Below, piece by piece: positions 1 to 17,262 of a DNA stretch of 17,262 bases (positions within the stretch are counted from its first letter, which is position 1; each line of letters begins with the position of its first letter). Location: the NCBI GenBank assembly GCA_043767805.1, contig JAYUGC010000023.1:1-17262 (forward strand), read 5' to 3'. The notes under the pieces were generated by a model that was given only the letters and a program-made list of their open reading frames with translations, ran no database searches and had not been told where the DNA came from. The stretch is from Pseudomonadota bacterium (GTDB taxonomy: Bacteria > Bdellovibrionota > FAC87 > UBA2466). The position numbers and the translations under genes are program-made.

Positions 1-439
1 GCCACAGCGCGGAGGTAAGCTTCGAGGCCGCGTCTTTCAAACCGGCATCTTCCGGCACTTTACCGAGCGTGAGTTGCCCGAAGTACCGGCGCTCGGAAGC
101 GTCCGTTTTCGCCTCGCGGTCCACGAGCTCGGAGCAGTAAGCGGAACCAAGCGCGATGGAAGCGGTCACCACCGGTTGAGTCAGCTGATCGGGCGCATTG
201 TTCGCCGGTAGCCGGTCTTTGAGCTCGTTGAACGCAACGTCCAACGGTAGGCTGTAAGGATCGAGGCCCGTCGCCGAAGCCCATGCCGCCCGCATCTGCC
301 GAAAGTTCATCAGCCCTTCGGTCCCTCCCAACAAAGCTGTTCCCGTCTGAATCTGGGTCGCAAGTTTTTCTCCGCTACATTGAAGGAGAACCAATAGGGC
401 CGCCCCGACGAGCGACAGGCGCCACGGAGATCGTTTCAT
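1..439 (-). CDS. Putative lipoprotein, partner of the DUF1585-like protein (runs off the window start, C-terminus missing)
   Basis: Not in the ORF track. ATG at 439 overlaps the TGA of the upstream gene (ATGA). Manual translation: MKRSPWRLSLVGAALLVLLQ-C-SGEKLATQIQ...GLMNFRQMRAAWASATGLDP...RLPANN...ALGSAYCSELVDRE..., open to position 1. Basic N-terminus, hydrophobic stretch and Cys21 resemble a lipobox. Confidence 0.75.
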   Translation of the reverse strand, partial: MKRSPWRLSLVGAALLVLLQCSGEKLATQIQTGTALLGGTEGLMNFRQMRAAWASATGLDPYSLPLDVAFNELKDRLPANNAPDQLTQPVVTASIALGSAYCSELVDREAKTDASERRYFGQLTLGKVPEDAGLKDAASKLTSALW

Positions 440-3043: not shown

Positions 3044-4096
3044 TTAAGCGGATCGCGCGAGGACGATTTTGATCCGTTTTCCGCCGAGCCGAAGACTCAG
3101 CGCGCCAACTCCCCAGCAGGCGATCGCCATCAAGCCGGGATAGAGCACCAAGCCGGCCCATGGAGAGAGCCGAGGGCTCACCCACTCTCCTAAGCGTTCG
3201 GCGAGGGAAACGTGAAAGAGATAAATCCAGAGCACGCCTTTTGAAAAACTCTGCACTAGACCGTATTTCGAAAAAGTGAGCCGCGCCGCGGCCCATTCAC
3301 ATCCCGCCATCAAGACGCAGAAAAATCCGGCGAGTCCCACGACGAATCCGAGAGACGGTTGAAAGATGGTGGCTCCCCAGAGATGCCCTTCATCGAGGTC
3401 GATGTGGAAGTAGCCGAGAGAGAGCGTCGCGACGACCGTCCCAAGTCCCACTAGACCCAGCACGGTGGCAAACCAGGGGGGATCGTCGAGCCGAAGCCGT
3501 AGGTCAGCGATGAAAAACCCGAAGACGACGATGAAGAACCACGGGAAAAACGGCCAATAACCGTCCGCCAGCCGGCTCCCCACTAAAAAAATGGAGAGAA
3601 GCGTGTCTTTCCCCGCAAATAAGGTCCGGAGCCACGGCGTGAGAAGCAGAGTTACCGCCCCAAGTCCGTAAACCAAATAGAGGTTGGTGTACTTGAGTAA
3701 CAAGGTGATGAGCAAAAAGGAGAAGCCAACGAATTGTAAAACGTCCCACTGAAACGTTTCGCCCGCACCCCAAGCGAGAAAATTCATGAGGAAACCGAGC
3801 AGCGTGATGGCGATGCTCACTTTCAAGATGGTGACGAAGGAGTACCCTTCGATCTTCAAGCCGGACCAGTACCGCACGAAATGAAGCCGAAGATTGGCGC
3901 CCGCCGTGGCGGGAAGGCTCATGGGGAAAATACCCAGCAGAGCAGCGCTAGCCAGATAGGGAACGATCGGGTTCGCCATGTTGATCTGTTCGTCACCGTT
4001 CGCAACCAAAGCGAAGGCCGAGTGGATGAAGACCATCATGAGGACGCAGAGAAATTTCGCGACGTCCAGGGCTGGCCATTCGTGGGAGGCTTTCAT
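3044..4096 (-). CDS. DUF1624 / heparan-alpha-glucosaminide N-acetyltransferase-like multi-pass membrane acyltransferase
   Basis: GAGG RBS. N-terminal ALDVAKFLCVLMMVFIH, WDVLQFVG, YWPFFPWFFIVVFG and LWIYLFH motifs. About 9-10 hydrophobic segments. Confidence 0.75.
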   Translation of the reverse strand: MKASHEWPALDVAKFLCVLMMVFIHSAFALVANGDEQINMANPIVPYLASAALLGIFPMSLPATAGANLRLHFVRYWSGLKIEGYSFVTILKVSIAITLLGFLMNFLAWGAGETFQWDVLQFVGFSFLLITLLLKYTNLYLVYGLGAVTLLLTPWLRTLFAGKDTLLSIFLVGSRLADGYWPFFPWFFIVVFGFFIADLRLRLDDPPWFATVLGLVGLGTVVATLSLGYFHIDLDEGHLWGATIFQPSLGFVVGLAGFFCVLMAGCEWAAARLTFSKYGLVQSFSKGVLWIYLFHVSLAERLGEWVSPRLSPWAGLVLYPGLMAIACWGVGALSLRLGGKRIKIVLARSA

Positions 4097-4308
4097 AGGG
4101 AAGACCTCTATTCTAACGGACGCAAGTCAAACGCGCTAATACCTGACACCCAAAGTCAGTCCGTGTTTCATCTTTAGCCCCTCTCAAAAGGCGAGCGATG
4201 TTTTTTGTCATTAGCGTAGCCCGGAGAGAGCCGGGCAAGACAAACCTTCAGGGGTCCAAGCTGACGCAAAGCATGGTAATTGAGGCCATTTGTGGGTATA
4301 CCTTGGCG

Positions 4309-5157
4309 ATGACCCGTTCCCTCATTGGTGGTTTGCTCGCTCTTGCCTTGGCCTTGCCTCTTCCGGCCCGAGCTTCAGTCACGGAAAAGCACGAGCTGAT
4401 CCCTTTTCGATCCGGGGAGTACTACGCGCTACCGGCCCTGGCTGCCGCCAATCTTTTTCTCATTTTCGACGTCTCTCCCTCGCATTCCCATTGGAGCGGA
4501 GGGGTGCTATTCGACGGCCCCATCCGGGACGCCCTCAGAGTGAAGACCCGGTCCGAGAGAGATGGGGTCGCCCTCGCGGGGGATCTCATGCTCTACACGC
4601 TGATTGCGTATCCAGGGGTGGTCGATGCCGGGCTCGACGCCGCTTGGTCGAAGCACGACATGAGAATAGGCACCCAGCTCTTTCTCATCAACATGCAGGC
4701 CTATCTGCTTTCGGGTGTCGCCTCCTTCGTGGTGAAGAAATTGACCGCGAGACAGCGGCCATTCGAGCAAGAGTGCAACGGCGATCCCAATTACGACATC
4801 GGCTGCCACCAGAAGGATAGCCGTCTCAGCTTTTATAGCGGGCACGCCGCCTTTTCCTTCACGGCGGCGGGACTCATTTGCGCCCATCACGAAAATCTCG
4901 AGCTTTGGGGGCAGATGACGCCTTGTTATGTTTCCATCGGAGCCGCGGCCGCGGTCGGCCTCACCCGCATTATCGCGGACCGCCACTACGCGACCGATGT
5001 GTTAGTCGGTAGCCTCGTCGGCTGGCTCTCGGGCTATACGATTTCACGCCTCTATCATTACAAAGAGGAAAGCGCCGCCGGTAAAGTGCAGATGTCCATT
5101 GTTCCCGTCGTGTACCCCGAAGGGCTCGGCGTGAACTTCGCCTTCGCCGGGTTTTAA
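4309..5157 (+). CDS. PAP2 family phosphatase (membrane-associated, signal peptide)
   Basis: All three PAP2 motifs are present: KKLTARQRP, SFYSGH, TRIIADRHYATDV. Preferred start is ATG 4309 (MTRSLIGGLLALALALPLPARA, signal-like) rather than 4198. Confidence 0.88.
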   Translation: MTRSLIGGLLALALALPLPARASVTEKHELIPFRSGEYYALPALAAANLFLIFDVSPSHSHWSGGVLFDGPIRDALRVKTRSERDGVALAGDLMLYTLIAYPGVVDAGLDAAWSKHDMRIGTQLFLINMQAYLLSGVASFVVKKLTARQRPFEQECNGDPNYDIGCHQKDSRLSFYSGHAAFSFTAAGLICAHHENLELWGQMTPCYVSIGAAAAVGLTRIIADRHYATDVLVGSLVGWLSGYTISRLYHYKEESAAGKVQMSIVPVVYPEGLGVNFAFAGF

Positions 5158-6176
5158 GTCTTAGGAAAGAACGCGAGACGGCGGTGGCGCTCCAGAAAAT
5201 ACGCCAGAGCCTGCCCTGCCCCGTCTCTAAGTAAAAACCGTCCAGCGAAAGTCCAAAGACGCGAGCGAGGGACCAGAGGAAAAAGACCTCGGCTCAGTCG
5301 ACGCAAGAGCGCGCGCCGGAGACCACTCACGCGTTCTTCGAGCTCGGTCAAAACGAAAGCGGGAACTTCGGCCCGGCTTAGAGTCAGCACGAACCAGGCC
5401 GCCGAGGAAAAACGAAAGCGTTCGGCCCGGGCGAGGAAACGAGACCAATCAATCGTCTCTTTTTGTATCAGTTGGCGAACGTCCAGAAGCCAAAGCGGCG
5501 ATTCGACGATGTGTTGAACTCCGGCGTGACGAATGAGGTAACTCAGATTGTCGGTCGCTTCCAGTACACGCACGGGGCAATCCAGGTCGGGAAAGACGAC
5601 GCTCTCGCTACGGCGCCAGTAGCCCTCGACTTCGGAAGCCGTCTCTCCGGCCAAAAGTCTCGCGTGCACTTCCACCACGGGATTTCCGTCGCGCGAGAGC
5701 TCGGTCCGAAAACGGCCGGGATAATCCCGGCCCACGGCCCGAAAGCCCTGGGCTATAAAGAGCGAGAGCGTCCGCGCGAAATCAGCGTCCCGCACCAGGA
5801 GATCGATGTCGGTCATGGGCCGTCTCAAACGTTCGGAGTAGTAGCGGCGGCCCAGCTCGGCACCTTTGAGGAGCAAAACGTCGACGCGTTCGCGCTTCAA
5901 TATCCCCAGAGCGAGCGAAAGCTCGTGATCGAGAAGCGCCTGCACCATGCGGCCTCGCCGAAGCTCTGATTCAAATTTTTCCTGGGTGCTCGCCGGCAGC
6001 TCGCCATTCCACGAACAGCTATCCAAGGTCAGAAGAAAGGGAAGCGTCGCGTGAAGGGAGCGGGAATAATCCAAGGCGGCGGCCCAACGGTTCGCGTCCG
6101 CGACAAAGCCGGGTTTCGCCGGAACTTTGCCCTCGATCAAAGCGAGAACGACCATTGAAAGCTGTCGCGCCGTCAA
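5154..6176 (-). CDS. Nucleotidyltransferase family protein (NTP_transf_5-like)
   Basis: LLLKGAEL...YY...RRPMTDIDLLV, VEVH and YLIRHA...WLLD motifs. Likely TTG start at 6176 overlapping the peptidase stop (TTGA), with GAGG upstream. Confidence 0.85.
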   Translation of the reverse strand: MTARQLSMVVLALIEGKVPAKPGFVADANRWAAALDYSRSLHATLPFLLTLDSCSWNGELPASTQEKFESELRRGRMVQALLDHELSLALGILKRERVDVLLLKGAELGRRYYSERLRRPMTDIDLLVRDADFARTLSLFIAQGFRAVGRDYPGRFRTELSRDGNPVVEVHARLLAGETASEVEGYWRRSESVVFPDLDCPVRVLEATDNLSYLIRHAGVQHIVESPLWLLDVRQLIQKETIDWSRFLARAERFRFSSAAWFVLTLSRAEVPAFVLTELEERVSGLRRALLRRLSRGLFPLVPRSRLWTFAGRFLLRDGAGQALAYFLERHRRLAFFPKT

Positions 6177-6616
6177 AGCCAGCGCCTCAACCACGATAGG
6201 GCTCGCGTGGCCCTTCGCCAAAAGGGAGCGCCGAATTTTCCTGAGCGAAGACTTAAAAAGGAAACGCGCGCAATGAGCCTATCGAGAGCGCCTCGCGAGA
6301 AAGGACGAGCGGCCCCGCCACCGGGCGATTTCAGAGAGACCACCTTGCCCCAGATTTGCTTGGTTTCAAACGACTCGGAGAGAAACCCGGAATCGCCTTT
6401 CACAATCCAATGAGGTCCCTCTGCAGCGAGCAGCCGATGCAAAATCCAATCGCCGTGCCCGTCGCGGCAAAGCACGAGATCTCCCGCCTCCGCTTTGGCG
6501 TCGGGGGAAGCAAGCCACTCCACGCCGACGAGACTTCCGGGGCGAAGAAAAGGGCACATACTCTCGCCTTCCACCCGAAGCCACGGAGCGGAATCAGGAC
6601 TTGAGCTTGGCGGCAT
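6173..6616 (-). CDS. S24/S26 family peptidase (soluble signal-peptidase-like), candidate leader peptidase
   Basis: LRVEGESMCPFLRPG (catalytic Ser), GDLVL, ILHRL, IVKGD and IWGKV motifs. No N-terminal TM anchor. Start probably ATG 6616; the 6670 extension overlaps the precursor core. Confidence 0.82.
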   Translation of the reverse strand: MPPSSSPDSAPWLRVEGESMCPFLRPGSLVGVEWLASPDAKAEAGDLVLCRDGHGDWILHRLLAAEGPHWIVKGDSGFLSESFETKQIWGKVVSLKSPGGGAARPFSRGALDRLIARVSFLSLRSGKFGAPFWRRATRALSWLRRWL

Positions 6617-6764
6617 TACAGGCGGGCACTCCACCGGTGGAAACCTTTCTGGAAGCGGTGGTCGTGCCATTGCACAAGGCCGCCACTGCGGTCAGAGGTT
6701 CCGTTTTTACGACGGGCTTTCGGTACGGCTTCTTTTCCGTATCGACTTTTTTCTCTTCAGACAT
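6594..6764 (-). CDS. 56-aa RiPP-like precursor peptide: MSEEKKVDTEKKPYRKPVVKTEPLTAVAALCNGTTTASRKVSTGGVPACNAAKLKS
   Basis: Read manually; absent from the ORF track. ATG at 6764 overlaps the kinase end, GGAGA lies upstream, TGA at 6594-6596. The leader has the YxxP RRE-binding motif (KPYRKPVV), the core has two Cys, and it lies between maturase genes. Confidence 0.85.
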   Translation of the reverse strand: MSEEKKVDTEKKPYRKPVVKTEPLTAVAALCNGTTTASRKVSTGGVPACNAAKLKS

Positions 6765-7839: not shown

Positions 7840-8100
7840 ATGACACCAGTGCGAGAGCCCAATCTCCCTTGGAGAGAGGTAGGCGGCCGAGCCATCATTC
7901 TTTCTCCGAAGCACGGCAGCATCCACGAGCTAAACGACGTCGGCACTTTGCTTTGGACGCATGCCGACGGCGAGACCTCGATCGAAAGCCTCGCGGAGAC
8001 ACTCGCCGCTTCCTTCGATATCGAGCCCGCGACCGCCGAGGCGGACGCCCGCGTATTTTTCGCCGAGCTGGAAACTCTCGGCCTCGTCCGCTTGCATTAG
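7840..8100 (+). CDS. Stand-alone PqqD family RiPP recognition element (RRE), 86 aa
   Basis: WREVGGRAIIL...IHELNDVGTLLWTHADGETSIESLAETLAASFDIEPATAEADARVFFAELETLGLV matches the PqqD pattern LN-x-x-G-x-x-(I/L)W...DG...F...L...GL. Start ATG 7840 rather than 7672. Confidence 0.92.
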   Translation: MTPVREPNLPWREVGGRAIILSPKHGSIHELNDVGTLLWTHADGETSIESLAETLAASFDIEPATAEADARVFFAELETLGLVRLH

Positions 8101-8107
8101 GAGCTCC

Positions 8108-9151
8108 ATGTCCATCTTGTCCGACTTCCGCGAAGTCACCCAGGAAAAGCTCATCCCGCTGCAGGTGACCCTCGAGCTCACTTACCGGTGCAACGAGCGT
8201 TGCGGGCATTGTTATCTCGCGACTTATGACGACCGCGCGGACGGACGCCCCACGTTGACGCTTTCCGAATGGCAAAGAATTTTAGACGAGCTGGCTTTGG
8301 CCAAGACCCTTTATCTCATCCTCATCGGCGGCGAGGCCATGATGCACCCTCAGTTCTGGGGCATCGCCGAGTACGGGGCCAAGCGAAACTTCGTTTTGAG
8401 TCTCATCACCAACGGCCTCTTAGTCGACGAGCGCGCGGCCGATCGCTTTAGCGATCTCAATTTTTATCAAGTGACGGTCAGCTTCTATTCCCTCGATCCC
8501 GCGATCCACGATCGCATGACCCGCCGAGTGGGCTCGCACGCGGCGACTCAGGCCGCCATCAAGCGGCTTCAGAAAAAGGGCGTCGGCGTCGGTTTGAACT
8601 GTTTACTCACCCGGGAAAATATCGAAGGCTGCTTCGAGCTCGAAGCCTGGGCTAAAGCGAATGGTCTCGTCATTCAGTTCGATCCCATGGTCACGCCAAA
8701 GTCAGACGCCTCGCTCGCCTCGACGGTAACGCGCGCCTCGCGCGCACAGCTGACAACGTATTTCACCACTTTGAAGCAGCTCGGCCGAGGGCACGGCCCG
8801 CAGCCCAAGGCGGAAGCAGTGGATCCCGTGTGCAATGCCGGCCGCGGCAAATGCGCCGTGAACCCTTACGGAGATTTACTCACCTGCCTCGAAGTCAGAG
8901 AGGCCATTGGGAACTTGCGCGAGAAATCTTTCGCCGATTTATGGCACTCCCCTAAAGCGCAAGAGTTGCGCGGCTACCGCGTCCGCGATTTGAAGTTCGA
9001 CTCGTCTTGCGGCGACGGCGCCTTCTGCGATCACTGTCCCGGCATGGCGGGCGCCGAGGTGGGAGACCGTATGGCGCCGATTCCCTTCCTCATGGAACTT
9101 GCCCAAATCAAGCGCCAGGTTTTCGAGTCCGACTCGCCGGGCCAGCCATAG
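8108..9151 (+). CDS. Radical SAM/SPASM-domain peptide maturase, 347 aa
   Basis: AGGAG RBS and ATG 8108. Radical SAM motifs: LELTYRCNERCGHCY (CxxxCxxC), GGEA, ITNG, HDRMTR..GS. SPASM-like tail: CNAG...NPYGDLLTC...IGNL...LW...C-x5-C-x2-CPG. Confidence 0.93.
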   Translation: MSILSDFREVTQEKLIPLQVTLELTYRCNERCGHCYLATYDDRADGRPTLTLSEWQRILDELALAKTLYLILIGGEAMMHPQFWGIAEYGAKRNFVLSLITNGLLVDERAADRFSDLNFYQVTVSFYSLDPAIHDRMTRRVGSHAATQAAIKRLQKKGVGVGLNCLLTRENIEGCFELEAWAKANGLVIQFDPMVTPKSDASLASTVTRASRAQLTTYFTTLKQLGRGHGPQPKAEAVDPVCNAGRGKCAVNPYGDLLTCLEVREAIGNLREKSFADLWHSPKAQELRGYRVRDLKFDSSCGDGAFCDHCPGMAGAEVGDRMAPIPFLMELAQIKRQVFESDSPGQP

Positions 9152-9404: not shown

Positions 9405-12400
9405 ATGAATTTCGTTCGGCAAACATTTTCGCGCGCGCCCCTGTTTTTGATCGCGGCGATCCTGTTCTCCGCGCAGACGGCTTTTGCCGCGTGCACGACC
9501 GGCACGAACGCGTGTTGCCTTGCGGGCGGTGGTACGGGCGATAGCTCCGCCACTCGTCGCACCTGGCAGCCTACCTCCGGCACCGTGACCTGGATCGATA
9601 CCGCCAACTGGGCCACGGCGAACATTCCCGACACGAGTGTCGAAGAAGCTTACATTCAATCGGACTGGCAAATTCCCGCGTGGCCGAACACCAGCTATTC
9701 GCTCGCTTGCGTTCAGGTGCCTTCGGGCGCCTTTACCGCGACTCCGGCGGCGGTCTCGGTCACCATGGCCAATACGAGCGCGGCCGTCACCATGTCTGCC
9801 CCGACGGCGACCGTGACCATGGCCGCCCCAACGGCAACCATCACGGGCAACACGCCTTCACTCAATGTGACGTTTCAGGCCGGATCCGCGATTACTTTTA
9901 CCATCCCGAGCGCCACCATCACCATGACGAGCGCAAACCCGGGCGTCGTGACCTGGACGGCACACGGAATGGTATCGGCCGATACCCCCGTTCAGTTCAC
10001 CACCACAGGGGCGCTCCCGACAGCGATCGCCCAAAACACCACGTATTACGTCAGAAATATCGCTGTTAATACTTTCCGATTGGCTTCAACACCGGCCGGC
10101 GCCGCCATGAGTACCCTTGCGGGAACTCAGTCTGGCATCCATACCGGCCGTCAAGCTCTGCAAATCAATTGGACCGGCCATGGTTTGGCGGCGAGCGATC
10201 CCGTGGTATTTACCAACACCGGTGGCGCTCTTCCTACAGGCCTCACCGCGGGGACAACCTATTACGTGGCCTCCCTTCCCGCGTTGACCGCGAATACCTT
10301 TTCAGTTTCCGCGACGGCGGGCGGTGTTGCTATCGTTTCCACTTCGACGGGCTCAGGCACTCAAAAGGGTTTTAAGAGGGAAGTGGTCACTTGGACCTCT
10401 CATGGGCTCGCGGCAAACGACCCGGTCGTCTTTACGAACTCGGGCGGTGCGCTCCCCACCGGAATTACGGCCGGCACCACCTATTACGTGGCGGCCACTC
10501 CCGCCCCGACAGTCAATACGTTTGCCATCTCGGCGACGGCGGGGGGCACGGCCATCTTTGCGACATCGGACGGGACAGGAACTCATACCGGGTCGAAAAC
10601 GCTCATCTGGACATGGACGGCGCACGGGCTTCTCGCCGGCGCGCCCGTAAGCTTTACGAACTCGGGTGGCGCTCTGCCTGCTCCGCTCGTCTCCGGAACC
10701 ACTTATTACGTGGCCGCCTCCCCGGCGCCTGCAGCCAATACTTTCTCGGTGGCAACCACGGTGAACGGCACGGCCATCATGGGAACTTCGGCCGGCACCG
10801 GAACGCATACCGGACGAAAGCCCTCTTTGGTCACGTGGACCGCTCACGGTCTGTCTGCGGGATTCACGGTTAGCTTCACGAACTCAGGCGGCGCTTTACC
10901 CACGCCGTTCGTGGCCAGCACGGTTTATTACGTTGCCGCCGTCCCGGCTCCCACCGCGAATACTTTTTATGTGACTGCCACCGCGGGCGGTGAAGCCATC
11001 ATCAACACCGTGGCCGGCTCCGGAACTCATACTGGCAATAAGACTACGACGATTACTTGGACCGCTCATGGCCTTGCCGCTGGAACTCCGGTGAAATTCA
11101 CGAACTCGGGCGGCGCTCTGCCTTCTCCCTTGGTCGCGGGGACCATATATTACATCGCGAGCACTCCTGCGCCGGCAGCCAACACCTTCTCTGTGGCGGC
11201 GACTGCCGGTGGCGACGCCATCATCAACACCTCGGCGGGCTCCGGAACTCATACGGGGTACAAACCGACCACCGTGACCTGGACGGCGCATGGACTCACG
11301 GCCGGAGCCCCCGTGAGATTTGCGGGAACAATGCCGACGGGTCTTACTGCCGCCACCATTTATTACGTTGCCGCCCTCCCCGCCCCCGCGGCGAACACCT
11401 TTTCGATAGCAGCGACGAACGGGGGCGTCGCTCTTTTTAGCACTGGCACCGGTGCCACGATTACCAACGACGCTTTCTTCTTGAGCGTTGCCTCCGAGTA
11501 TTTCGAGAATCTCAACGCGGGCTCGCTCACCACGAACGCGAACTTTTTCATTCGCATGAACGGCGCCTACGCGCAGAAGTTCAACAACGTAGACCCCATC
11601 AACAACCTCATCATCTCGAACGGCACCACCGTCACCATGCCGAGCAATTTTACGATTAGCTCGAGTATGGTCATCGATTCGGGCGCGGGCACCACTCTGA
11701 TCGATGGCGGACTGACCCTAAGCTATACCGGCACCGCTTTAACCATTCCCGCGAGTGCCACGGTCGAAGTGGGCAGTGGCGCTACCTTCACGGCTATGGG
11801 CGGAATCATCGTCAACGGCGTTTTGAAAATCGACGCCGGCGCCCGTGTCCTCATCGGCAACGGCAAAACCCTGCAAGTCAATGCGGGCGGCCTTCTCCAA
11901 ATGATCGGAACTTCGGGTAACGTCGCCACCCTCGATGCCGCCCAAGGCGGATCGACTTACGCCCTGAACGTGGCCGGTTCGATCAACGCCAACTATTTCT
12001 CCATCAGCCGCACTACGGCCAGTGGTTTGAATATCACCACGGGTGGCTCCGACTCGATTCAAACCCTTTCGAACGGTGATTTTCACTACCCGGCCACTGG
12101 CGGCGCGGCGATTACGCTCAATACCGCCAAGAATTTACCAAGCCCCGATCCGAGCGGCCTAGGCTTCTTCGACGAGTTTGCCTACGGCAACACGAAGAAC
12201 ATAGACGCCACGAGCTATACGGGAACCGCTGTCACCATCAATAGCTACTCGGGCCTAGGCGGAGTGGCGAACGAAGTCGATCCAGGAAGTAAGATCGCCT
12301 GGGGAACGACCGCGGCCTTAGCCCTTCAGGTCACTAATCGTACCGCCTCGGGCGCTCCCGCCTCTACTATCGCAAAGGGTGCGGCAGCTACGCTCTTCGC

Positions 12401-15400: not shown

Positions 15401-17262
15401 AGTGCTCGACTGGACTACGGGTCTCGAAGTTGCGCATCAAGGCTTCAATGTATATCGCAGCACGGATCCAGAAGCGGGTTTCGTGCAGATTAATCCTTTC
15501 CTGATTCGCAATCCAGTCGCGACGGGATCGATTCACGGCCGATATCAATTCTATGATGGCAGCGTAGCCAACGGAAAAACCTACTACTACAAGCTCGAGG
15601 ATATCGCCTCGAACGGCCATCGTACGCTTCACGGTCCGCTCGAGGCGACTCCGGATGCGTCGCTAGGCGCAGCCCCGGCCTCGGCCTCCGACGCGATCGT
15701 CGCGGGCGATACGTTACCAGCCCCGGTACCGACGGCGCCGGATCCGGACACTCTCGCGGGCGCCGGTCAAGTCATCGCCCCCGGGATCACGATTTTAGCG
15801 AAGACCAATCACTCCCTGCGGTTAAAAATCGACGTGCCCGCTTCCATCAGAGGCGCGTCGGATTTGAGCCCGTACGAAGCCGTCACCATTCCTGGTTATT
15901 CCTCCTCCACCGAAGCCAATCGTCCGGAGCTTCCGGAACGCACCGTTTTGGTGGAAGTCTCCGAGGCGCTCACCGCCACTTTCCGTGAAGTGAGCCGAAG
16001 CGCCTCCATGATTACCCGCATCGATGTAGTGCCGGCGAAAGCCTGGACCGTGGTTGGCGGGAACCTAGTCCCCTCCCCCCCGGTGGTGGACGCCGCGTTC
16101 TACGCCCTGGATCAAAGACTCCCGTCGGCGGCGATTGAACTGGGCGCCATCGTTCAGAATCAGGGATTGAGTTATCTGCCCGTGAAAATCCGGCCTCTCG
16201 CCTACAACCCGATGCAGAGAGACATCAACGCGCTTTCTCAAATCGTCGTCGACATCTCGCTCTCCGGCGTACCGGACTGGAACACGGGAGCTCCCGTGGT
16301 GGAGAGCGGCGCCTGGGGTTATGAGGGCGCTCTTAGAGTTCACATCAAGAAGGCCGGTCTCTATCAGATTCGTTACGAGGACCTAGTTTCGCTGGGACTC
16401 GAAGGCCCGTTCGACGAAGCGAACATGGCCAAGCTCCGGCTCTTCAACGTTTCCGGAGAGCTTCCGCTCGAAGTCACCACCACTACCGGCTTCTTCTCGA
16501 CGGGCGATTTCATTCGGTTCTTCGCGCCCTATGTCGAGAGCCCCAGCTCCGACCGCAATACTTTGGTTCTGATCGCCGATTCCGTCGCAGGGCTCCGTAT
16601 GAGGTCCGTTTCGGGCGCGGTCACCGGATACGCCAGCACGCAAGCGAGCTTCGAGCGACGCATTCAGGTCAAAACCCCGACGTACGGCCTGTTCCAAGAG
16701 GCTTATGGAGAAGGTCTCGATCACATTTTCTGGGGCGGCATCTATTCTCCGCCGCAAAATCCGGGCGAAGACCGTATCGATGCGTCGATGAGGCTTCCGA
16801 ACCTCGCCAGCACGGGTACGGCGCGCCTGAAGATTTACGCCAAGGGCAGCCCGGGTGGACATCTTCAGAATCCGAACCATCACGTGCGCATTTTCGTGAA
16901 TGGTTCCGCCGCGCCTCAGGGCGACGTCACCTTCCAGAGCAACGAAGCTCAGGTTCTGATCTTCAACGTCCCGGCCTCGGGACTCGTGGGCGGCTTGAAT
17001 CACGTTGAAATCGTGGCCGTGGGCGACCTGACCCCGGGAGACTACGACTTCATCAATATCGAGAAAATCGTGGTCGATTACCCTCACGAGTGGATCGCGG
17101 AAGCTGGGTACGCCGACCTCTTGAATTATCAGACGGGTTCCACGCTCACAGTAAAGGGTTTCGGCAGCGAGCCCATCGCCGTCTATGACGTGACCAATAC
17201 TGCCCACACGGCGGTTCTGACGGGCGTGAATGCCGTCGATGCCGGCGCGGACGGGCACGAAG
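9405..17262 (+). CDS. Giant secreted multidomain protein with C25 (gingipain/PorU-like) peptidase architecture, at least 2619 aa, 3' truncated
   Basis: Missing from the ORF track, consistent with no in-frame stop in the window. GAGG RBS, ATG 9405, Sec signal (…SAQTAFA-A). Thr/Gly/Ala/Asn-rich beta modules, then an FN3-like domain AVTLTQF...LDWTTGLE...GFNVYRS...YYYKLED..NG..T.HGP (~15354-15653). C25-propeptide-like RPELPERTVLVEV...FYA...PLAYNP (~15780-16265). PorU-like LRVHIKKAGLYQIRYEDL...LRLF...GDFIRFFA (from ~16326). The catalytic His/Cys region is not in the window. Confidence 0.85.
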   Translation, partial: MNFVRQTFSRAPLFLIAAILFSAQTAFAACTTGTNACCLAGGGTGDSSATRRTWQPTSGTVTWIDTANWATANIPDTSVEEAYIQSDWQIPAWPNTSYSLACVQVPSGAFTATPAAVSVTMANTSAAVTMSAPTATVTMAAPTATITGNTPSLNVTFQAGSAITFTIPSATITMTSANPGVVTWTAHGMVSADTPVQFTTTGALPTAIAQNTTYYVRNIAVNTFRLASTPAGAAMSTLAGTQSGIHTGRQALQINWTGHGLAASDPVVFTNTGGALPTGLTAGTTYYVASLPALTANTFSVSATAGGVAIVSTSTGSGTQKGFKREVVTWTSHGLAANDPVVFTNSGGALPTGITAGTTYYVAATPAPTVNTFAISATAGGTAIFATSDGTGTHTGSKTLIWTWTAHGLLAGAPVSFTNSGGALPAPLVSGTTYYVAASPAPAANTFSVATTVNGTAIMGTSAGTGTHTGRKPSLVTWTAHGLSAGFTVSFTNSGGALPTPFVASTVYYVAAVPAPTANTFYVTATAGGEAIINTVAGSGTHTGNKTTTITWTAHGLAAGTPVKFTNSGGALPSPLVAGTIYYIASTPAPAANTFSVAATAGGDAIINTSAGSGTHTGYKPTTVTWTAHGLTAGAPVRFAGTMPTGLTAATIYYVAALPAPAANTFSIAATNGGVALFSTGTGATITNDAFFLSVASEYFENLNAGSLTTNANFFIRMNGAYAQKFNNVDPINNLIISNGTTVTMPSNFTISSSMVIDSGAGTTLIDGGLTLSYTGTALTIPASATVEVGSGATFTAMGGIIVNGVLKIDAGARVLIGNGKTLQVNAGGLLQMIGTSGNVATLDAAQGGSTYALNVAGSINANYFSISRTTASGLNITTGGSDSIQTLSNGDFHYPATGGAAITLNTAKNLPSPDPSGLGFFDEFAYGNTKNIDATSYTGTAVTINSYSGLGGVANEVDPGSKIAWGTTAALALQVTNRTASGAPASTIAKGAAATLFATYGFALNGTGTSTDLTSLTLTLDGVNVASDVNYIQVFNDTSANCAYNSGVDTQIGSNLTMTGSPPTATLTIPASTLSLSNTTQKCLHVLLSTNSNARTGDTLQMTISGTADVSNSQAYSFSNSGGPPISGTVSTITGTAVKKWNGGNGAIGASQNWNANGGDWTPTTAPVSTDDCQIGPAHSYPAVNGNYTCTNVTLPTNGRMNWASTANTLTVLGALSIGSTYTFLNATTGNITMGATTAWQAIDAATAIPGNLIINNTYNTDGLVAINTDLTVNGNLTLTRGILTVTTGHTLTVLGTITVNGGTLDIDPGGTLNLGDGRTMTINTGGTLNIVGDATQSARFTCNGTATGCAISVAGTGTIAARYYSMSRMAVAGLTIASTASIDATNHLQDGSFTYPIGASPILLTLNRQVPTNALANMTFDTASSAATSPKSILTSTSAGTLTISAYSGDLTNCCTTAPTYLVSWTAPTTTLKLTLEASAPGAVNQGATGVTLARFGLQQTQAGAYSDTDVTSMKVTMQGSQNSGDISAVRLYYDSACSGSGGVQVGSTLTFSGSPPTANFTSLTSATVQYSLTSPPKRCFYVQADVASAATVANTIGVSIQSNADVVNSIGYSFNGSYAPPLAAGTSVISGNSITWTGATNTDWNTTSNWNLARVPLTTDNCIINSVTNNPVISAATANCKSLTIGNGTLTINTGQTVEVYGSFTNTGTLTLTGTASVTIRDNGSTTTNQTLQSSSPLTKVVFNKTAGGYVYIGNQTLTIDPLTIPASQNFTFDVRNGNTLTLPSGATVTSATFQADDAALVKIGNAQTFLVNGGTLYSNGVNDGYPQLTTNKSKFTVNGSGTWSLTATSGTINMTGFLLDYLDTNGFQINGTTGVTNFNGGQFTNLSNTYASVKALQVNTSGSFPASGAFDYIGFNWGANNTPPGPAAAYLLASSTGCSSRTLNLTNWFGDFFYAVDMPVPSTKISNTSCNITMTAAASAVTLTQFKVTPYNAKVVLDWTTGLEVAHQGFNVYRSTDPEAGFVQINPFLIRNPVATGSIHGRYQFYDGSVANGKTYYYKLEDIASNGHRTLHGPLEATPDASLGAAPASASDAIVAGDTLPAPVPTAPDPDTLAGAGQVIAPGITILAKTNHSLRLKIDVPASIRGASDLSPYEAVTIPGYSSSTEANRPELPERTVLVEVSEALTATFREVSRSASMITRIDVVPAKAWTVVGGNLVPSPPVVDAAFYALDQRLPSAAIELGAIVQNQGLSYLPVKIRPLAYNPMQRDINALSQIVVDISLSGVPDWNTGAPVVESGAWGYEGALRVHIKKAGLYQIRYEDLVSLGLEGPFDEANMAKLRLFNVSGELPLEVTTTTGFFSTGDFIRFFAPYVESPSSDRNTLVLIADSVAGLRMRSVSGAVTGYASTQASFERRIQVKTPTYGLFQEAYGEGLDHIFWGGIYSPPQNPGEDRIDASMRLPNLASTGTARLKIYAKGSPGGHLQNPNHHVRIFVNGSAAPQGDVTFQSNEAQVLIFNVPASGLVGGLNHVEIVAVGDLTPGDYDFINIEKIVVDYPHEWIAEAGYADLLNYQTGSTLTVKGFGSEPIAVYDVTNTAHTAVLTGVNAVDAGADGHE
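9744..9932 (+). repeat. Seven short (~9-aa, 27-nt) beta-strand-like repeats
   Basis: PAAVSVTMA / NTSAAVTMS / APTATVTMA / APTATITGN / TPSLNVTFQ / AGSAITFT / IPSATITMT, directly preceding the seven 74-aa repeats. Confidence 0.75.
9945..11470 (+). repeat. Seven tandem ~74-aa (222-nt) coding repeats, FCCH-like / phage-virion-type small beta domains
   Basis: W-T-x-H-G codons start at 9954, 10170, 10392, 10614, 10836, 11058 and 11280 (spacing 216, then 222 five times). Consensus VTWTAHGLxAGxPVxFTNSGGALPxxLxAGTxYYVAxxPAPxANTFSVxATAGGxAIxxTxxGSGTHTG, diverged at synonymous sites. Confidence 0.93.

Follow-up and report, generated by a model that had tools for sequence, protein, structure and literature searches.

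A putative nested array of seven FCCH-like β-barrels in a loop of a PorU-like giant surface protein

A giant open reading frame (ORF) on a 17,262-bp contig from a bacterium of the Bdellovibrionota (GenBank JAYUGC010000023.1, C23) encodes a protein, P0001, that carries a block of seven short strands (S1-S7) followed by seven repeat bodies (B1-B7). The window analyzed here is this entire contig, and the block lies at positions 9744-11470, which correspond to residues 114-689 of the ORF. Its sequence layout and the structure models strongly suggest that seven small domains are nested one inside the next, such that the chain would run out as head strands and return through the bodies, with its two ends meeting at a single turn of the host protein. 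The first-pass annotation of this DNA had proposed such nesting, and the proposal is now supported by the strand-body-strand-body (S-B-S-B) order seen in relatives, by steps of 81-84 amino acids (aa) per layer in orthologs, and by two structure predictors.

In the proposed architecture, the whole block would be one insertion into a loop of the first beta-rich module, in a PorU-like (peptidase C25) giant surface protein. Its unit would be a small FCCH-like, endosialidase-like β-barrel with the canonical form "head strand - turn - body", present in seven copies. The head strand of each outer domain would be parted from its body by all of the inner domains, giving the order S1..S7 B1..B7: S7 would complete B1, S6 would complete B2, and so on outward to S1 with B7. 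Each head strand is predicted to form an edge strand against the first (xVTW) and last (GTHTG) strands of its body. An outward strap of about nine residues per layer, together with the return path through the bodies, would bring both ends together at the host turn. This arrangement would give a zipped stalk of seven barrels that should be stiff, since every layer would be clamped by a strand of the outgoing chain. Its length would be on the order of 15-20 nm if each layer contributes nine extended residues.

Layout of the Insert

Motif positions and a profile hidden Markov model (HMM) built from the seven bodies bear out the first-pass description of seven short strands that precede seven bodies (residues 114-690). 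The strands VSVTM, AAVTM, ATVTM, ATITG, LNVTF, SAITF, and ATITM end at residues 121, 130, 139, 148, 157, 165, and 174, so that the strand units follow a 9-aa period with a single 8-aa step. The W[TS]xHG motif of the bodies begins at residues 184, 256, 330, 404, 478, 552, and 626. According to the HMM, the bodies are 72-74 aa long and abut with 0-aa linkers. They share 42-73% identity with one another in protein and 54-69% in DNA, and these levels indicate old, real repeats rather than a recent expansion or an assembly artefact. DNA identity among the head strands gives no usable signal, and Tandem Repeats Finder (TRF) reports a 27-nt period in the window over S2-S4 only. Pfam and NCBIfam contain no family that matches the strands or the bodies, and a sequence comparison of the block with Protein Data Bank (PDB) chains returns a single row at chance level (E 0.32).

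Two further claims about this layout also hold. Only B1 had been said to possess a contiguous head strand (ATITMTSANPGVVTW; ATITM-TSANPG-VVTW), and the HMM boundaries agree: each of B2-B7 starts straight after the GxHTGxK or GTQKGFK end of the body before it. The block had also been placed between the SGAFTAT and FFLSVASEYF segments of the first module, and the equivalent motifs indeed lie close together in representatives of the family that have no insert.

Canonical Units in Unrelated Proteins

The body is present in all 40 proteins recovered by the first homology search. In the carriers that are not orthologous to P0001, each body has a look-alike strand of its own immediately before it, in S-B-S-B order, with linkers of 7-17 aa. 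Examples, with a slash between strand and body, are stvtmtias/PGVVAWTNHGL (P0013), vtitsan/PGVVYW (P0008), and sstisvasp/AVVST (P0010). Proteins with PA14/DUF1800, T4 gp9/10-like, Kelch, or endosialidase-barrel domains are among these carriers, and the recurrence of the same order in such unrelated contexts implies that the normal domain consists of a head strand, a tight turn, and a body. P0001 and its orthologs depart from this order: their head strands are gathered upstream of a run of abutting bodies. Many homologs of the body are phage baseplate or fibre-like proteins (carriers of PF07880 and PF12195).

Two proteins unrelated to P0001 have a similar array. In P0095 (~203-450) and P0100 (~108-357), three look-alike strands (e.g., KTATITG x3) stand directly before three abutting bodies, so the form with n strands before n bodies (S^nB^n) is not restricted to C25 giant proteins.

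The barrel is also divided in other ways. Two whole units are inserted after the second strand of a body in P0096 (636-871), P0103, and P0160. Four first halves are followed by the second halves in P0084 (231-620). In P0113 (362-750), four bodies that lack their last hairpin and one complete body precede four extra "LVATSGSQSGTH" hairpins. The same barrel is nested at another split point in P0111 (354-590), an unrelated protein.

Insert Length in Orthologs

The first homology search yielded five orthologs with inserts (P0002-P0005 and P0009). When 38 genomes of the same order were searched with the body array, matches occurred in six of them from two genera, the genome of the window (G000) included. 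One copy of the giant protein was found in the window's genome with this query. A sister genome of the same genus (G008) has two paralogs, on contigs C26 and C52, with 8 and 7 layers. The ortholog in G025 is split across two contigs inside the repeats and was left out of the counts.

If every body has one head strand upstream, then the length of the strand region should increase with the number of bodies, as is observed (Table 1). We calculated the size of the insert per body by subtracting a 14-aa baseline from the distance between the flanking motifs (182-663 aa in the five orthologs with inserts for which both motifs were located) and dividing by the number of bodies. The resulting steps of 81-84 aa per layer, compared with a body of 74 aa (the number of positions in the body HMM), leave room for about one strand of 8-10 aa per body.

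Table 1. Bodies, strand regions, and insert size per body in the orthologous arrays
Protein	Bodies	Strand region (aa)	Insert per body (aa)
P0002	8	73	81
P0001 (window)	7	67	82
P0003	7	68	
P0004	6	62	81
P0005	1 + 6	19 and 59	82
P0009	2	24	84

The series also extends to zero. A library-wide search with residues 1-1200 matched 4097 proteins at E <= 0.001, and 43 further representatives (P0041-P0083) were checked. In 33 of them, 12-18 aa separate the C..SG and GDYF-like motifs, with neither strand nor body in between. The other ten comprise eight without the first motif, which are N-terminally cut or unrelated, and two regular-expression misfires. The first-pass annotation had expected the numbers of strands and bodies to agree among homologs, including where both are zero, and insert length over 2-8 bodies and these 33 representatives speak in its favor.

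Single units of one strand and one body occur elsewhere in the orthologs: at residues 1412-1497 of P0004, 1523-1689 of P0005, and ~598-681 of P0009, and in the later modules of the G026 ortholog (L007, G026:C43). P0001 has no such units at its later-module sites. These additional sites suggest that the family has several insertion hot spots.

Predicted Pairing of Strands and Bodies

The nested architecture makes a specific prediction, already put forward in the first-pass annotation, that strand i contacts body 8-i and that the contacts between the two halves of the block are consequently anti-diagonal. Models from two predictors agree with this pattern. AlphaFold2 was run on the whole block (the 7+7 model; residues 95-720, six-row alignment) and on its three inner layers (the 3+3 model; S5-S7 and B1-B3, residues 148-398). 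The alignment for the 3+3 model combined the inner layers of four orthologs with three other proteins. Pairing in these models was read from the ranges that VIA-align reports for superposed structures.

The 3+3 model has a mean predicted local distance difference test score (pLDDT) of 81.3 and a predicted template modeling score (pTM) of 0.71. S5, S6, and S7 each form a strand of six residues in it, with pLDDT blocks of 58, 74, and 76. Nearly all of the VIA-align rows (46 of 50) span residues 1-4..251 of the model, which corresponds to S5 plus B3 with the 165 residues between them skipped. Among the aligned structures are contiguous 77-83-residue FCCH domains of Uba1 and Uba6 and the endosialidase barrel (Z 6.6-8.2, root mean square deviation [rmsd] 2.2-2.8 Å, 67-75 residues). 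The remaining four rows cover 21/22..104, which is S7 plus B1. FCCH domains also align to S7 plus B1 (72..157) in the 7+7 model, where DSSP assigns a strand or bridge to each of the short strands.

For the outer layers, ESMFold2 was given B4-B7 and S1-S4 as separate chains in three runs with three controls. The interaction prediction score from aligned errors (ipSAE) is 0.67, 0.67, and 0.64, versus 0.00 for the best of the three controls, and it passes a mark reached by 116 of 157 solved complexes but by 2 of 215 mismatched pairs. The runs share at least 97% of their contacts, with a partner pLDDT of 82 or more. The 25 listed lowest-error contacts are all anti-diagonal, with expected errors of 1.2-1.6 Å. 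They join S1 (121) to B7 (622-625); S2 (128, 130) to B6 (550-551, 618); S3 (137-139) to B5 (474-478, 498-499, 542-544); and S4 (145-146) to B4 (403-404, 469-470). Each strand packs against the first and last strands of its body. Together with the superposition of FCCH domains on S5 plus B3 and S7 plus B1, these contacts favor the predicted order of pairing.

Fold of the Repeat Unit

One unit of strand plus body resembles the FCCH domain of PF16190. The superposition on the predicted model has a VIA-align Z of 7-8.2 and an rmsd of 2.2-2.8 Å over 71-75 of ~79 residues, with 11-30% identity, and Foldseek matches the unit from the 3+3 model to FCCH with a probability of 1.00 and an E of 0.02. No PF16190 sequence match occurs at E <= 1 for P0001, S7 plus B1, or B2, and precomputed matches to this family exist only on the homologs P0006, P0007, and P0022. 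The barrel of phage endosialidases (PF12195) fits the model in a similar manner (4hiz: Z 7.4, rmsd 2.2-2.6 Å, 69-71 residues; 1v0e: Z 6.8), and Pfam finds no PF12195 sequence match in P0001. Chains that contain the Si3 insertion of RNA polymerase (8gzh_Z and 8emb_D) are matched with a probability of 0.01-0.04 on the 7+7 model, and none is among the matches listed for the 3+3 model.

Points against Nesting and Alternative Explanations

Several observations weigh against the nested architecture. The pairing is predicted by models rather than seen in a solved structure. The 7+7 model is poor (mean pLDDT 63.4, pTM 0.36), its strand region falls below a pLDDT of 50, and B2 in it matches FCCH without a head strand (rows 156..230). 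For S6 plus B2, the 3+3 model gives two weak rows (12..177 and 10..179; Z 3.4-3.5). VIA-align ranges report the first and last aligned residues only, and neither AlphaFold2 model has a Foldseek match in the PDB at E <= 0.001. The ESMFold2 result may owe something to the model's familiarity with complete FCCH-like barrels, and the alignments were custom-built, with 5-6 rows. An ad hoc regular expression for the strands returns the same number as the body count in two of five ortholog arrays (8/8 and 7/7; the others give 7/6, 5/6, and 3/2); it is a crude pattern, applied to arrays with a usable anchor and leaving P0001 out, and we prefer the lengths. Finally, P0106 (601-884), P0161 (135-423), and P0176 (347-871) contain 4-7 abutting bodies with no matching strands upstream, which indicates that the fold does not require a head strand. 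The body may do without a head strand in these proteins, or the last strand of the preceding body may serve in its place.

A separate question is how a nested array would have grown. Either a unit could have been inserted literally into a unit, or equally, the strand and then the body could have been duplicated in tandem, step by step, with their numbers kept equal by selection. Paired tandem duplications would give the same result, so the layout does not establish recursive self-insertion in evolution. We regard growth by such duplications as a serious competitor that falls just short of an even call. A 27-nt strand unit would be duplicated first as a harmless extra loop and a 222-nt body would follow, and selection would bring the numbers back into balance, since the array has to start and finish at the host turn. 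The 27-nt period over S2-S4 in the window suits this scheme, as does the possibility that P0009 has three strands for two bodies. In P0003 (L008, G008:C52), an 18-aa block of two strands is present in tandem duplicate, with 48 of 54 nt identical and all six differences synonymous, and the partner bodies are only 66-73% identical in protein. However, at 6/18, the synonymous difference of this strand duplicate cannot be called clearly lower than the 0.39-0.64 of the body pairs, and with such similar divergence the ages of the two are not separable. Paired duplication must also contend with proteins in which the same body is split elsewhere: after strand 2 (P0096), after YYV (P0084), or before the last hairpin (P0113). 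These varied split points are more easily explained by true insertion of one domain into another.

Other explanations dispense with nesting itself. The short strands might serve only as a return strap, a length-matched spacer that stays outside the barrel folds. Geometry alone would then tie the length of the strap to the number of bodies, and the headless bodies in other proteins and the low pLDDT of the strand region in the 7+7 model are compatible with this idea. It is nonetheless improbable, for the strands resemble the canonical head strands of the S-B-S-B relatives, S5 and S7 coincide with the first strand of solved FCCH domains on superposition, and the ESMFold2 strands contact the first and last strands of each body at low expected errors.

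The equal counts would be a coincidence if seven complete domains stood in an ordinary tandem after an unrelated low-complexity linker rich in Thr, Val, and Ala. Although the bodies alone make a good HMM and no Pfam model covers the strand region, this explanation is already disfavored and very improbable: the length of the strand region follows the number of bodies (2, 6, 6, 7, 7, 8) and is zero where there are none, and both predictors put the strands inside barrels. There is similarly little reason to expect that the head strands complement the bodies of a neighboring molecule and link copies into a polymer or lattice by donor-strand exchange, because, even though the docking of S1-S4 on B4-B7 as a separate chain makes complementation in trans sterically possible, the insert begins and ends at the same turn of the host module, the three inner layers are modeled confidently within one chain, and this analysis reveals no sign of oligomers.

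Host Protein and Locus

P0001 begins with a signal-like segment that is followed by three beta-rich modules that resemble one another and by a Propeptide_C25 match (27.1 bits, cut-off 22), and this match identifies it as a member of the family of Peptidase C25 / PorU-like giant surface proteins. The catalytic domain would lie beyond the end of the contig. The full-length orthologs are 2770-3318 aa long and have a C-terminal Peptidase_C25 / PorU-like domain. P0002, for example, matches Peptidase_C25 with 231 bits, and two PorU models with 170 and 162 bits, under their cut-offs of 420 and 450. Four of the five orthologs from the first search (all except P0003) have precomputed Propeptide_C25 and Peptidase_C25 matches. 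Pfam names no family in the three modules of P0001. Residues 693-800, which follow the insert, are similar to two later segments of P0001, 1217-1334 (E 2e-4) and 1707-1818 (E 1.4e-5), and this fits the division into three modules. A query with the post-insert module against genome contigs gave 69 pattern matches and no confirmed relative.

A Cys-rich motif, AACTxGTxxCC, follows the signal-like segment (window 9486-9530, residues ~28-42). It is present in the orthologs that bear inserts, and the insert-free representatives have AACG(A/G)T only. The features of the giant ORF and its insert are collected in Table 2.

Table 2. Features of the giant ORF and its insert in the window
Feature	Residues	Positions	Strand	Basis or remark
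Giant ORF, 2619 codons, 3' end open at contig end		9405..17261	+	ORF call
Host strand before insert, SGAFTAT	107-113	9723..9743	+	C..SG.FT motif conserved with and without insert
Head strand S1, TPAAVSVTM; predicted partner B7	113-121	9741..9767	+	ESMFold2 contacts
Head strand S2, ANTSAAVTM; predicted partner B6	122-130	9768..9794	+	ESMFold2 contacts
Head strand S3, SAPTATVTM; predicted partner B5	131-139	9795..9821	+	ESMFold2 contacts
Head strand S4, AAPTATITG; predicted partner B4	140-148	9822..9848	+	ESMFold2 contacts
Head strand S5, NTPSLNVTF; predicted partner B3	149-157	9849..9875	+	FCCH alignment to model 1/2..251
Head strand S6, QAGSAITF; predicted partner B2	158-165	9876..9899	+	Two weak alignment rows and elimination
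Head strand S7 and turn, TIPSATITM-TSAN; contiguous with B1	166-178	9900..9938	+	Canonical unit form
Body B1, innermost, most divergent	179-250	9939..10154	+	HMM
Body B2	251-324	10155..10376	+	HMM
Body B3	325-398	10377..10598	+	HMM, FCCH alignment
Body B4	399-472	10599..10820	+	HMM, ESMFold2
Body B5	473-546	10821..11042	+	HMM, ESMFold2
Body B6	547-620	11043..11264	+	HMM, ESMFold2
Body B7, outermost; 71% identity to last body of P0002	621-690	11265..11474	+	HMM, ESMFold2
Host strand after insert, FFLSVASEYF	691-700	11475..11504	+	Equivalent of xLTIxGDYF in insert-free orthologs
Propeptide_C25 match	2159-2286	15879..16262	+	Pfam

A radical SAM/SPASM protein is encoded directly upstream of the giant ORF on the same strand (7961-9151, +). 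Farther upstream are genes for an S24-like peptidase (6173-6670, -), an NTP_transf_5 protein (5154-6221, -), a PAP2 phosphatase (4198-5157, +), and an Acyl_transf_3 acyltransferase (3044-4096, -).

Possible Role and Implications

The barrel of phage endosialidases binds carbohydrate. The fold match to this barrel, together with the many phage baseplate and fibre-like proteins that contain the body, leads us to suggest tentatively that the insert could project as an arm and present lectin-like barrels that bind surface polysaccharides. A broader view, for which we see about equal grounds for acceptance and doubt, is that the small FCCH-like barrel is a recursive building block. It would accept further copies of itself in more than one loop (after strand 1 in P0001, after strand 2 in P0096-type proteins, after YYV in P0084, and before the last hairpin in P0113). 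Bacteria and phages would thereby build zipped rods, and even branched trees, of any depth that could be placed in a surface loop of any host protein, and evolution would quickly tune the depth (0, 1, 2, 6, 7, or 8 layers in close relatives) to set reach or spacing.

The presence of these different numbers of layers at one site in close relatives provides a natural series for studying how such arrays fold and grow. If the array is nested, the outermost domain could be completed only once the whole chain is made. A nested design could also serve protein engineering as a spacer of chosen length that can be inserted into a loop.

Comparison with Known Systems

Repeat proteins are almost always simple tandems whose ends are far apart. 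Such a tandem is not placeable in a loop, and a regular nested array has adjacent ends. A loop-compatible rod built in this manner would be rare. At the level of search results, literature searches on barrels nested by domain insertion (Russian-doll style) and on nested FCCH-like barrels gave no description of this architecture, and a search for E1_FCCH with tail fibres gave no paper containing E1_FCCH.

The FCCH domain of the ubiquitin E1 enzymes Uba1 and Uba6 (PF16190) is the best structural match of one strand and body. Unlike the predicted nested array, it is a single contiguous domain in a cytosolic eukaryotic enzyme. The phage endosialidase barrel (phi92 4hiz, K1F 1v0e/3ju4; PF12195) matches the fold with a Z of 6.8-7.4 and an rmsd of 2.2-2.6 Å over 67-71 residues. 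It is itself inserted in another domain and, as is true for many homologs of the body, it occurs in phage host-recognition proteins, but it is present as a single copy and is not nested. In chaperone-usher pilins, an incomplete β fold is completed by an edge strand from the next subunit, which is known as donor-strand complementation. In P0001, by contrast, the completing strand would come from an upstream part of the same chain.

The nearest solved precedent found is the Si3 insertion (TelSi3) in the trigger loop of the cyanobacterial RNA polymerase β' subunit. According to its structural description (PMC10895346), sandwich-barrel hybrid motifs (SBHMs) 2 to 5 of Si3 are built from distant parts of the chain, which folds over itself, and the arrangement is non-tandem with four of eight domains discontinuous. 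The same description gives an elongated shape of 150 Å for seven SBHMs. P0001 and Si3 have in common a long array of one small β domain that lies inside a loop of a host domain and whose chain folds back. The flanking-motif distances place the adjacent ends of the P0001 array in one host turn, and domains composed of sequence-distant segments are found in its predicted models (S5 plus B3, and S1-S4 with B7-B4), in agreement with the 81-84 aa per layer in orthologs. The differences appear to be in the fold, the regularity, and the host. Si3 as described there consists of sandwich-barrel hybrid motifs in a less regular order, whereas the insert examined here is predicted to be FCCH-like and follows a strictly regular S^nB^n form, with n up to 8, that is always split after the first strand. 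Si3 resides in RNA polymerase, whereas the host of this array is a secreted C25-type giant protein.

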